NCBI GenBank assembly: GCA_951804945.1
Contig: OX638153.1
Coordinates: 22,816,001-22,880,000 of the forward strand
Direction: 5' to 3'
DNA: 64,000 nt
Origin: Podarcis cretensis
Taxonomy: Eukaryota
Under the pieces are notes generated by a model that worked only from the letters and a program-made list of their open reading frames with translations, did not search any database and was not told the DNA's origin. The first letter of the stretch is position 1. Each line of letters starts with the position of its first letter. This document shows, piece by piece, positions 1 through 4,554 of the stretch. Position numbers and translations under genes: made by a program.

Positions 1-1025
1 GCACACTTGGTAGGGATGAGGCAGAGGGCCTTCTTAGTGGCCGCCCCCAGACTTTGGAACATCCTCCCTAGAAAAGCTGGTTCCCTCCTTGTTGTCCTTC
101 CACCAGTCTTGCTCCACCAGGCTTCCGGGTTAGCACCTCCGGCAATGGCGGAGCTCCTCCGAACGGGAGGAACTTGCTCCGTGAAAAGTAGGGTCTGAAC
201 CGCCACGGCGAAGGCAGAGACCCACTGAAATCACAGGCGGAAGAAGCCTGTGAACTTGGGATTCGGCTGGCACCCTTTGCACCTCCCCTACTCATGGGGA
301 AACCCTGTTTTGGGGATCCGGAGCAACGTGGGGTGAGTGGCGCGGTGCTTTGAATCGACTGCTTCTTTCACGGAGTGAAGCCGCATTGCTGCAGCCGGAG
401 AGCGCTGACTTTTTCCTGTGGACAATTGGACTTTAAACAACAACCCGTGAGTAGTAAGGAAAATTGGATCTTTAAATACCTTAATTTGACATCGAACGGG
501 GAAGGTTCAAAACAGGAAGTCCGCCTTCCCCTTTTGTAAATAGACTGAAGCAAAGAGCTTACAAGTTAAGGTCTTGGAAAGCCTTATGTAAAGGATTAAA
601 CTTCCATCGATTGAAATTATTAGACCCCCCTTGGAAGCAGGAGAAGAGGGGGAAAATTTTGGACCGTGTATCCTGAAGGAGAGAGTAATTAGAATTAAAT
701 TGCCACTGCTCTGAACCTGGGAATGGACTGACAGTGATTGACGTTTTGGGAGAGTTCATTGACAGCAAAGAGAACGGATGTTGACAGTCGGTTGAATAAG
801 AGAAATATATTGTTTCCATTGTCCGCTTCTGCGTTTAAAAGGGAGGAAAAGTAACAAAATTGAAACCAACTTTTCTTTTTGAACTTTCTTTGAAAGGATT
901 GATACAAGTGGAGACTGTTTCACTCTAGAGGGAGCTTTTGAAACTGTTACAAGAGTGGAGCTGGGAAATCTCCAGCTGCTTGATAAGAAGTGTGGGAACT
1001 AGAGATTGACCTTGGACATTCGAGA

Positions 1026-1670
1026 ATGTCGACAGGAGAAGCCTTAGTAACTGTATTTTGTAAGATAAACTATCTGCTGGAACAGCTTCATAAAAAATTG
1101 GATGTTATGATTACTAAAACTGACATTTTGGGACCAAAAGTGAGCACCAATACAGAAATTATTCAGGATTTGACACAAAAATCTATTTTAGCAGGACAAA
1201 TTGCTGAAAAGGAGAAGGAGAAAGTTGCTGTTGTCGAACCTAAAGCAATACAAGGGGGAGCTTTAGTCTTACAGAGGCAAATCAAAGACTACAAGCTGAG
1301 GCCCTTTATTATTGAAACTAGGAAAAGTCAGACTCTGAAGATCGGAGCCTGGCCTGGACTGGAAAAGGAAAGTTGGAAAGATCTTTCTATGCAGGGATTA
1401 ACTGACTTTTGGAATATGGACTTGGGTCAGGAGGAGATTGGAGCTCGGGGGGCCTTTGGAGTTGGAGGAATTTTGAAATATGCCCTGAAATACTTTATGG
1501 ATCCTAGCTTTAATTGTGGAAATTTGGCTGACCTGTCGAGAGGGAGTGGAGGTGTCGTTGGATTGGAGTTTCCTCGAGATCTGCTCTTTAGCATCAAAGA
1601 ATATGAAGAAGAACTGCAGAAGGGATGTGGAAGAGAGTTAAGAGCCTTGGACATAAGATTTCCAGGTTGA
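1026..1670 (+). CDS. L1 ORF1p-like protein (214 aa from first ATG), diverged and probably C-terminally truncated
   Basis: Longest ORF in the window. Heptad-like N-terminus followed by 'TLKIGAWPGLEKESWKDL...FWNMDLGQEEIGARGAFGVG', resembling the L1 ORF1 RRM entry motif (NLRIxGxPE...IERAxR); position within an L1-like element. Confidence 0.55.
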   Translation: MSTGEALVTVFCKINYLLEQLHKKLDVMITKTDILGPKVSTNTEIIQDLTQKSILAGQIAEKEKEKVAVVEPKAIQGGALVLQRQIKDYKLRPFIIETRKSQTLKIGAWPGLEKESWKDLSMQGLTDFWNMDLGQEEIGARGAFGVGGILKYALKYFMDPSFNCGNLADLSRGSGGVVGLEFPRDLLFSIKEYEEELQKGCGRELRALDIRFPG

Positions 1671-1770
1671 TGGACTGTATGGAGTGGACGGAAGTGTCTG
1701 TCAGAGCCTGAGACCGGGGAGAGGAGATGGTGGAAGAAGATTGGAAGATTTAAAGTCTATATATAGAAAT
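1664..1770 (+). pseudogene. Remnant of the extreme C-terminus of L1 ORF2
   Basis: Translates RLMDCMEWTEVSVRA*DRGEEMVEEDWKI*SLYIE, like the recalled squamate L1 ORF2 end (LMDYMELAEMT..IRD.GEE..EEDWK.F); two stops. Confidence 0.6.
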
Positions 1771-2240
1771 ATTGTAAAATTAATGAGTGACAGGAAAATG
1801 TTGGAATGAATTTTCTATGGCCTTAGTAGAAATGCTATAAGGAGTTAACCTTAATTAAGTATACTAAATTTAACGGAAATAAGATTAAAAATATGTTAAG
1901 ACATTTATATGATAGAAAATAGAGAAAGATGGAAAGGAATTGCTAAAACAATTAATGGAAGTGGAATACAAAGAGGGAGGTGAGAGGAGGTCGATGATAA
2001 GGGAATGAAAGTTAGAATATGGAAAAGGTATGAAGTATGTTTCTAAATTGTTTCTGTTTTGTTTTGTTTAGTTTATTGTGTTGGGTGATATGTTGAGGTT
2101 GTGTTTTGTATGGTTTATTGTATGGTTTTATTTTTTCTTGTTCTTGTTCTTTTTTTTGTTTTTCTCTTTTCTCTCTTTTTCCTTTTTAAAAAGTAATAAA
2201 TATTATTTTAAAAATAAAAAAAGAAAATGTTAAAAAAAAG

Positions 2241-2680
2241 TCCAAGCTATCTGAAAAACTGTAGTACCTCACTGAACCTGCCTGGATTTTGAGATCTTCA
2301 GGGGAGGCTCTTCTCTCAGCCCTACCACCCTCAAAGGCACACTTGGTAGGGATGAGGCAGAGGGCCCTTCTTAGTGGCTGCCCCCAGACTTTAGAACATC
2401 CTCCCTAGAAAAGCTGGTTCCCTCCTTGTTGTCCTTCCACCAGTCTTGCTCCAACAGGCTTTTGGGAACTGACTGCTTTCAATGAAAAGGCTTGTGCCAT
2501 AATGTGTTTTTTTTAAAAAAATAATATTTGTATAGTTTAAATAGATTTTTTTTTTTAAAAAAAAAAGTGTGTGTGTGTGTGTGTGTGTAGTTTTGCTTCT
2601 ATCTATGTTTAATTCTTCTTTAATGGTTTTTTATGTTCTTATTTTTAGCTGTAAGCCTTCTTGAATCCCAGGCAAAAGTA
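2241..2680 (+). mobile_element. Old L2-type LINE 3' fragment (target of the L1 insertion; part duplicated at 1-124)
   Basis: 'agggccttcttagtggccgcccccagactttggaacatcctccct' (RAFLVAAPRLWNILP), typical L2/CR1-clade ORF2 end, followed by AT-rich 3'UTR with (TG)n. Confidence 0.6.
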
Positions 2681-4554
2681 AAGCTTCCAACTAACTCTAC
2701 TAGAATTTTTAACATTGCTGCTCTTAAGAGGCAAAACTAGCAAAGGACAAGAAACAATGAAGAACAAAACTAGTTCCTTCCTTCAACATTCTTCCCTCAG
2801 AGCACCAGGATTGGAGAGCCCTGATAAAATCCATCTGATTACAGGCTAGTCCTATCAATCACAAAGGTGCAGAAATATCATTTAAAGCTCAGTTTCCCAG
2901 GAAGCTGTGCCCATTATCACAGTCTGTACTTATTTTGCTTTGATGGAGCTACATCCTTCCAGACTAGAGATGTGCATTTAATTTTAGTTAATACAATGAT
3001 GAAAATGGAATTAGTCAATTTGATTTTGGCTATTGCATTAACTAAAACTAAATAGAAAGCAAGCAAGATTTAATTTCCATTTAACTATTATGTCACAGCT
3101 GCCTGCCCTTGGAAGGTCTGGGATGTAAAGTCTGCAGCAATTTTAAGTCAGAGGGTAGGGGCAGGAGGGGGTAAAGTAGGAATTACAAGGATTAGCATCC
3201 CTGCTGGGCAACTTGTATTGCAAGCACAGAAAAGAAATCCTGCCATAGAGCCATAGCTGTCAACTTTTCCCATTTCTTGCGAGGAATCCTATTCAGAATA
3301 AGGGAATTTCCCTTTAAAAAAGGGAAAAGTTGACAGCTATGCACAGAGATGGGGCCACAGTCTGGCAATACACAAGTGGGGCACTGTAGAATCTTTACCA
3401 CGAATGACTGTTGCTTTGAGCTCCAGTGTGCTAATTTGGATACAAAATACTTTGCTGATTTCCCCCTTTGGGGTCTGCTTCCCGAATCATACTGCCATTG
3501 TAAGCACTCTCAATTTGCCTGCGTGTTTCATTCCTGTCACTCTTTCTGACCACCAGTGATAGCATCTCTCTCTATTGTGTCAGCCGACAGTGCTTTTCCT
3601 ACTGAGGTATTAGCAGGTGTTAATTATTGGGGATGGGAAAGGATCAGAGAGGCAGCTTGAGAAGGGTTGGGATTGTTTTCCTAGACAAAGAGTGGGGAAC
3701 TGGATTGGGCCACTGGGCCAGACCTTCCTTCCACTTAACCACCTAACATCACCATGATGCCAGGTGAAGTTTTTTCCTTTGCAAGCTGGCTGGATAGAAA
3801 ATGTTGTACCCCCCACTCCCGGTTTGATTTCAGATTTCATGAGCAACAAAATATGGATTACAAACAGCTGCAGATCAGGGCTTGCTGTAAGCACCAATCT
3901 TTATACCTGCCCCACCTGTTGTCAGGTGAGGGATAGATGGGCATGGTTTGGGGGAAATGGCCCTGTGGACCAGAGGTTCTGCACCACTGCCATTGAGAAT
4001 ATTGAAAACCAAATCAAAAACAAATGTCTGCACCTAAAATTGAAATCAAGATTAAACAACAGCAAGCTCATTCTCAGAGTGTGGATTCTTATGTTGCCAA
4101 AGGGCACCTTCCATACACAAGGAGGAGGTAACAGCAAGCAATCCTGACAGTCTTGAATTGAATTTCACATTCCCCCCGGCTGCATCCTCCACTAAATGCT
4201 GTCCACTTGGCCTGCTTAGTTTGTATTTTATTTAAGCATTATTGCCGGACTGCAAATTATATACAAAATTGCTGCCAGCAATGTTAATTGGTTGGACGCT
4301 GTGCTGGAAATTATGTATTGACGAGAACAATACGCTGGAATGATGGGGTGAAATACTGTCATGGCGTCCCACTATACTGTGAATCTATAGTACAGCCAAT
4401 TTTTAATTAGTAAAATTAGAGACTGAGGAGTTGAAACCTACTGGAAAACACATAATCTGACCTCATCAGCAAGGAACAACTTTCATTGATGGGTTTTTGT
4501 GTGTGTGAAGAAGGGCTGTTTTGAATAGGTGGTGAGGGATAAGTTGGGTTGAAT

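Follow-up and report, generated by a model that had tools for sequence, protein, structure and literature searches.

A half-L1-like family in the lizard Podarcis cretensis keeps an open ORF1-derived frame while its RNA-binding domain erodes

An abundant half-L1-like family in the genome of the lizard Podarcis cretensis is notable for having kept an open reading frame derived from L1 ORF1 while the RNA-binding domain within that frame erodes. Despite cuts into the RRM the family has grown to at least 1,844 copies, spread over many lineages in parallel, and it is the frame that has been kept rather than the residues. Excerpts of a preprint on human L1 call the route by which Pol II transcripts (HAL1, SVA and mRNAs) reach L1 ORF2p against cis-preference unresolved, and give as a working model that an ORF1-only element needs its own RNA-binding ORF1p (bioRxiv 2024.05.03.592410). 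The family seems to be a reptilian L1 family with ORF1 alone, which the literature searched does not describe: we found no reptile HAL1 or ORF1-only L1 there, including in the excerpted text of PMC5203782 and PMC7397244, and a Dfam or Repbase entry is possible.

Anatomy and copy number of the element

The window analysed here is the whole 64,000-nucleotide stretch of contig OX638153.1, and all features given below lie on its forward strand. A full-length copy of a non-autonomous, L1-derived element, which we assign to lineage A, occupies positions 122..2239. It opens with an L1-derived 5'UTR (122..1025) that is 75% identical, over window 115-1014, to L130, the closest of 20 further L1 loci in the genome and colinear with the element. 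The CpG-rich start of this 5'UTR (positions 122-430: GC 58%, CpG observed/expected 0.77 versus 0.25 for the whole window) is likely an internal promoter, putative from its sequence. Two motifs in it, CTTCCGG at 122-128 and ATGGCGG at 145-151, which we take to be ETS-like and YY1-like, are both also present in the L130 5'UTR. The initial annotation had recognised this CpG-rich, motif-bearing end but began the element at 125; the character of the end stands, and the start moves to 122. The leader before the long frame measures 904 bases, in line with the ~900 bp first estimated, and contains five short upstream ATG frames (1-19 codons); near its 3' end the parental ORF1 start codon and N-terminal codons have been deleted.

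The 214-aa frame (1026..1670), uninterrupted as annotated, begins at an internal Met of the parental ORF1. Its first part (1026..1331, residues 1 to ~102) retains the coiled coil, as indicated by heptad periodicity and a trimer model. Two in-frame loss sites follow, one of ~42 codons in the second half of the RRM (1466..1472, from alignment to L130) and one of 17 CTD codons (1596..1602) that are present in lineages D, F and G. The ORF1/ORF2 deletion junction (1655..1673, with the break at 1665/1666) leads into the decayed end of ORF2 (1667..1793), which in this copy carries one stop and one frameshift; the decay had been noted correctly, although alignment to genomic L1s extends the remnant from ~35 to the last ~41 codons. 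An L1-derived 3'UTR (1794..2208, delimited by sequence and L130 alignment) holds a T-rich tract and the AATAAA at 2195-2200, and a degenerate A-rich tail (2209..2239) closes the copy, both signal and tail being present as first read. At window 1667-1672, TGATG overlaps the stop of the ORF with an ATG of the ORF2 remnant in a stop-restart shape that the junction likely produced incidentally. The surrounding 19 bases are identical across lineages that are very different elsewhere, an identity partly due to sampling.

In place of a short target-site duplication (TSD), a 222-bp duplication borders the window copy. The upstream copy of this duplication (1..124) starts 96 bases ahead of the window and is identical to the downstream copy (2240..2461) at 217 of 222 positions. 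The last bases of the upstream duplication overlap the first bases of the element by 4 (GCTT). This is probably an unusually long TSD, those of sibling copies measuring 14-32 bp. Outside the element, an inverted repeat of 24 bases (96% complementary, arms 42 bases apart) at window 3252-3341 is possibly a small DNA transposon.

The window copy belongs to a multi-copy family that has moved as one piece and bears TSDs and A tails. When the same genome was searched with the DNA sequence, 40 of 5,659 candidates were scored, and the best 29 other loci were 93-96% identical over most of the element length. An exact 19-base pattern across the ORF1/ORF2 junction matched the genome 1,844 times, with no match for the reversed control, and a 27-base pattern from the 5' end matched 442 times. 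A junction unique to this locus had been named beforehand as speaking against a family; it is not unique, and the proposal of a family rather than a one-off deletion is further upheld by the TSDs. Among 30 fetched lineage-A copies 27 are full length, and 22 of these have their own TSD of 14-32 bp; three others have one of 9-10 bp, for one none was found, and the last is the window copy. Between TSDs the other copies measure 2065-2189 bp, with A-rich target starts in 17 and a mean divergence among lineage-A copies of 3.8%. Across lineages the element spans 2.1-2.45 kb between TSDs and contains neither endonuclease nor RT, for which the initial annotation had rightly seen no room. The 5' end is retained in 31 of 60 junction loci with long flanks.

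Some observations on individual copies may be added. A lineage-C copy stands shortly after a D1 copy in the same orientation (L058/L042, G000:C1:53227838-53231680), and nested L1 or other insertions lie inside copies L031, L035, L037 and L059. Contigs of family relatives, one spanning 1336-1693, occur in two runs guessed to be RNA, and were not counted as evidence.

Origin from a resident L1 and erosion of ORF1

Like the lacertid autonomous L1 represented by L130, the element runs colinearly through 5'UTR, ORF1, ORF2 end and 3'UTR (65-79% identity to the window copy). Beyond the 5'UTR, identity to L130 is 65% at 1024-1469, 66% at 1469-1622, 79% at 1600-1665 and 74% at 1666-2227; the ORF2 remnant and 3'UTR together are 74% identical to L130 over 593 columns and 61% identical to genomic L1s over 504 nt. 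L130 positions 1620 to 1746 are absent at window 1469, and the RRM segment lost there aligns inside the human RRM of PDB 2LDY. At the protein level, a family profile aligned to a profile of 18 lizard L1 ORF1 sequences (hhalign 99.7%, E 2e-25), the 214-aa protein is 50% identical to L130 ORF1 in aligned columns, and the lizard ORF1 profile matches the human ORF1p RRM-CTD structure 2LDY (E 6e-4). The initial annotation had allowed for a protein with no similarity to ORF1p, which is not what these alignments give.

L130 itself is without an intact ORF2. A young L1 family with intact ORF2 (endonuclease and RT by Pfam) shares the element's 5' end, ORF1 (E 3e-14) and 3' end; four of its loci (L052-L055) are 98.6-99.2% identical over 6.2 kb, and a 1256-codon ORF2 frame is present in 13 of 150 scored L1 loci. 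This young family and lineage A are only 73-74% alike in the ORF2 remnant, and many other diverged L1 ORF1 lineages occur in the same genome. Unlike the element, the lacertid L1 has a full ORF1 (omega 0.16), with endonuclease and RT in the ORF2 of intact families. A UniRef protein of Podarcis lilfordi named 'L1 transposable element RRM domain' (P0004) provides a lacertid-type L1 ORF1 comparator, and those relatives of the resident L1 ORF1 that carry names are from Podarcis, in keeping with a lacertid host.

By these comparisons the 214-aa frame is ORF1-derived, and the window lineage arose from a resident L1 by internal deletions, which removed the ORF1 start and N-terminus, ~42 RRM codons, 17 CTD codons, and the stretch from near the end of ORF1 to the last 41 ORF2 codons. 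The last of these deletions created the stop codon of the ORF. Since the family derives from a lizard L1 of the same genome, it arose independently of mammalian HAL1, as the initial annotation had supposed in proposing an independently evolved squamate half-L1. The 'own diverged ORF1' of that proposal holds for the derivation but not for an intact ORF1p, ~42 RRM codons being gone.

Pfam contains no family for the 214-aa protein, and its L1 ORF1 models miss intact lizard L1 ORF1s too (L130, L052-L055, P0003-P0022), so these blanks say nothing about the protein; Pfam-based L1 surveys would miss these lizard ORF1 proteins. A genome search with Transposase_22 gave no match, and its control matched nowhere either. 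The ESM Atlas returned no usable match for the 214-aa protein, the protein collection gave one match to the single protein and three to the family profile, all unnamed, and AlphaFold2 monomers of the family protein had a pLDDT of 32 and 35. Separately, Pfam assigns RING/B-box domains to two Podarcis muralis database proteins (P0008 and P0009, one of them annotated as 'TRIM39-like E3 ligase') that also match lizard L1 ORF1, at 57% across 69% of the ORF1 length. They could represent a TRIM-ORF1 fusion gene or else an error of annotation.

Across lineages, ORF1 has eroded stepwise and in frame. Intermediates were found among loci chosen by the junction alone, and all lineages in the series are in frame from the same Met start to the same stop, with frames of 276 aa in F1, 261 in F2, 233-241 in D, 221 in C, 214 in A, B, H, I and K, and 198 in G. 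The coexisting lineages (276, 261, 241, 221, 214 and 198 aa) may constitute a natural deletion series from a protein-coding LINE to a SINE-like passenger. At its near end, F1 (2.4-2.46 kb, 24 loci fetched, F1 loci being L165-L187) is ~86% identical to the autonomous L1 L130 and is without only 15 RRM codons. F1 keeps the parental ATG, but its copies have in common a stop at codon 10, ahead of the coiled coil. Because the parental ATG runs into this stop, the long frame starts at the internal Met; the parental start would form a 9-codon upstream frame, and ribosomes would have to reach the long frame by re-initiation or leaky scanning. A fixed stop in this position indicates that stops can be fixed where they are harmless. 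In F2 the N-terminal stop region of F1 is gone and two heptads are lost. Lineage E was encountered incidentally and sampled at the DNA level; its protein is 39-45% identical to those of A-D, and 9 of its 13 copies have the full frame between the same start and the same stop. In lineage A the frame is uninterrupted in 17 of 30 copies under a strict start-to-stop pattern.

These losses bear on the mechanism classically proposed for HAL1, in which the protein binds and chaperones in cis the RNA that encodes it. Here the shortened protein would have to do so with its CTD and half an RRM, which we consider unlikely. RRM codons are missing in every sampled lineage (at least 15, mostly ~42, and more in G, which makes up 8 of 90 sampled loci), and lineages A-C, E and H-K have also lost the 17 CTD codons. 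Counting from the shared Met, L1 ORF1 has 52-60 K+R residues, whereas every lineage except F1/F2 has 25-38. The arginine that, by alignment to lizard ORF1, corresponds to what we take to be R261 of human ORF1p is a serine in the window's lineage. Against these losses stands the C-terminal third, which has the lowest omega of the frame (0.55 in the 15-lineage set), a value that includes codons fixed by the search pattern. Excerpts of PMC3627910 and PMC2241872 also give binding in cis as the reading for mammalian HAL1, and it accords with the behaviour reported for a human HAL1 proxy in excerpts of bioRxiv 2024.05.03.592410. The RRM loss, together with the near-neutral residues described below, makes it unlikely that the mammalian mechanism applies unchanged.

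Selection on the frame and on the residues

We judged selection from pairwise and codon-model counts and from counts of shared versus private changes. Once inserted, copies decay neutrally: the non-CpG changes confined to single copies of lineage A comprise 113 replacements, 35 synonymous changes and 9 stops, with 102, 38 and 8.6 expected from the UTR spectrum. Changes common to several copies mostly reflect source elements. Of 61 junction-chosen copies that span the ORF, the shared-versus-private test covered 45, grouped in 8 clusters of at least 4 copies, with a UTR control in 6 of the 8 clusters. None of the 38 stops and frameshifts in the ORF was shared (0 shared, 38 private), compared with 67 shared and 148 private synonymous changes (p=4e-6), whereas replacements were shared about as often as synonymous changes (124 shared, 307 private; OR 0.89, p=0.58). 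Non-triplet indels gave the same picture (0 shared and 24 private in the ORF versus 14 and 19 in the 5'UTR, p=1e-4), and disruptions behind codon 105 were likewise never shared (0 of 20, p=0.0016). The ORF2 remnant carries a stop and frameshifts common within lineages, which bears out the initial reading that ORF1 stayed open while the ORF2 remnant decayed.

A full frame is present in ~23 of the 61 ORF-spanning copies of the junction sample. There were exceptions to the pattern of private disruptions. One stop in a CGA codon (CpG) occurs in 3 of 29 lineage-A copies, probably recurrently since these lie on separate branches; two F2-like copies (L146, L152) share a stop; and of the six singletons in the junction sample five are broken and might belong to unsampled non-coding lineages.

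Codon models gave a whole-frame omega of 0.68 for 7 lineages and 0.72 for 15 (the latter set leaving out lineage E), near the values for arbitrary frames of the non-coding 5'UTR control (0.74, 0.96 and 0.89), while nine L1 ORF1s over the same regions gave 0.16. With disruptions purged and replacements near-neutral, selection acts on the frame and hardly on the sequence; coding capacity has been maintained over time, and the amino-acid sequence evolves close to neutrally.

Alternatively, chance or constraint on the RNA might account for the open frame, the element being in effect a non-coding bipartite LINE. Nucleotide conservation is indeed fairly flat along the element (0.65-0.90, with the peak near the junction, in a profile that leaves out lineages D4 and E), and protein searches, which are biased towards open frames, were the first to turn up several lineages. 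Yet the junction-chosen sample, with no selection for the frame, still contained not one shared disruption among 38, where stops would make up ~6% of substitutions under neutrality. Among 30 loci chosen by their 5' end there was no case of the 5'UTR passing directly to the 3' end with the ORF missing (23 continue into the ORF region for as far as the retrieved sequence goes, and 7 break off at varying places). The shared-versus-private count largely refutes this explanation, to which we assign a very small probability. Classification as an ORF-less bipartite non-autonomous LINE was rejected on the same grounds, namely the maintained frame and the 30 loci chosen by 5' end, among which no ORF-less form was found.

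Within the frame, a 3.5-residue hydrophobic periodicity extends over the first 51-60 residues in 14 of 15 lineage representatives, lineage G being without it (p=0.29). The omega of the coiled coil was 0.60 for 7 lineages and 0.79 for 15, and the notion that it is clearly under purifying selection, based on the lower value, was weakened by the additional lineages and the non-coding control. Codons 1-60 of lineage A have fewer shared replacements (OR 0.23, p=0.04), and the coiled-coil codons of the junction sample show no such deficit (OR 1.20, p=0.62; lineage E is left out of this count by region). Indels in the coiled coil come in sevens, which slippage could produce without selection because the heptads resemble each other in DNA. 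A predicted mixed trimer of two L1 ORF1p chains and one family chain scored 0.66 against 0.02 for the best control, with runs agreeing in at least 84% of contacts and a partner pLDDT of at least 73; of 78 solved pairs 51 attain the score mark, as do 2 of 108 mismatched pairs (39 of 65 and 2 of 126 in eukaryotes). As the family protein is a close relative of ORF1p, the model may pass from likeness to ORF1p alone.

Possible route to ORF2p and comparison with known elements

The element is almost certainly copied in trans by an L1 ORF2p, given the missing enzymes, the TSDs and A tails, and the intact L1s in the genome. We propose that its RNA would be transcribed from the L1-derived promoter and translated from the internal Met, where the coiled coil begins, to the junction stop. 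The emerging coiled coil would join the ORF1p trimers of a helper L1, a co-assembly that could draw the RNA to the helper's ORF2p, and the ORF2p of an intact L1 would then copy it in trans. The sequence behind the coiled coil would act as a spacer that holds the ribosome and nascent chain on the RNA, or that stabilises the RNA, a role in which length and frame matter more than residues. That start-to-stop translation plus a coiled coil joining helper ORF1p explains the kept frame is suggested by the position at which translation would begin, by the periodicity kept in 14 of 15 lineages and by the trimer model (0.66); against the coiled-coil step, the omega of both coil (0.79) and frame (0.72) falls within the range of the non-coding control, and lineage G lost the periodicity yet multiplied. 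On balance we give this explanation about even credence.

A tentative alternative, less probable but of some weight, is that translation alone is selected, the RNA being kept on ribosomes near newly made ORF2p or protected from decay, with the peptide as waste and the ORF1 traits as leftovers. The equal sharing of replacements and synonymous changes would fit (OR 0.89, p=0.58), as would an omega of 0.72 near the control when L1 ORF1 itself has 0.16, the purging of disruptions behind the coiled coil as well, and lineage G, which lost its heptads and more of its RRM but stayed in frame and multiplied. A ribosome-association model of this kind is described for Alu in excerpts of bioRxiv 2024.05.03.592410, yet the HeLa assays excerpted from the same preprint fit translation alone less well than they fit co-assembly through the coiled coil: an ORF1-only reporter with an open frame but the R261A/R262A change gave no colonies, and EGFP mRNA moved only rarely, the driver there supplying ORF2p only. 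Also speaking against translation alone are the statement in the abstract of PMC8201931 that intronless pseudogene RNAs do not trigger canonical NMD, and the persistence of heptads in 14 of 15 lineages.

Somewhat probable, in our view, is a 'frame-only' half-L1, a retrotransposon parasite that would depend on translation but no longer on a working RNA-binding protein. Access to the ORF2p of a helper would come by way of the ribosome, with a coiled-coil hook as the most that the protein adds. The natural variants could separate translation, coiled-coil co-assembly and RNA binding in one assay.

HAL1 (half-L1) of mammals was reportedly described by Smit in 1999 and by Bao and Jurka in 2010. As with HAL1, the lizard family is L1-derived by ORF2 loss, keeps the 5'UTR, a single ORF1p-homologous frame and the 3' end, forms a multi-copy unit whose coding capacity is kept over long divergence, and has its own origin from a local L1. 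It differs in its lizard host and in an ORF1 that is missing its N-terminus, a portion of its RRM and often some of its CTD, so that the intact RNA-binding RRM-CTD of HAL1 would be wanting (15 to ~42 RRM codons missing). It differs also in selection on the frame and hardly on residues, mammalian HAL1 being compared here through excerpts of later descriptions only. According to such excerpts, HAL1 derives from L1, has ORF1 only and originated on several occasions within mammals (PMC5753468, PMC13756887), and a human HAL1 proxy required an intact RNA-binding ORF1p (bioRxiv 2024.05.03.592410). Judged from its sequence, the family would therefore resemble HAL1 in anatomy and dependence but depart from it in the intact ORF1p.

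ORF1-present non-autonomous LINEs of other clades and hosts include HeT-A (Jockey clade) and Ag-Sponge (CR1 clade), whose proteins Kojima (2018) expected to multimerise with those of the autonomous partner, as excerpted from PMC5786205. The present family likewise has one ORF1-like protein, no RT and a proposed multimerisation with the partner's protein, although the excerpts mention no deletion series in an RNA-binding domain for HeT-A or Ag-Sponge. A splice origin was considered and rejected: only the first deletion can be read as GT..AG, and the RRM and ORF1/ORF2 deletions cannot. Spliced L1 insertions (SpIREs) share with the family an internal L1 loss that includes the ORF1 start and the use of a downstream AUG, and are described as dead ends in excerpts of PMC5860796; unlike them, the lizard family has amplified in many lineages.
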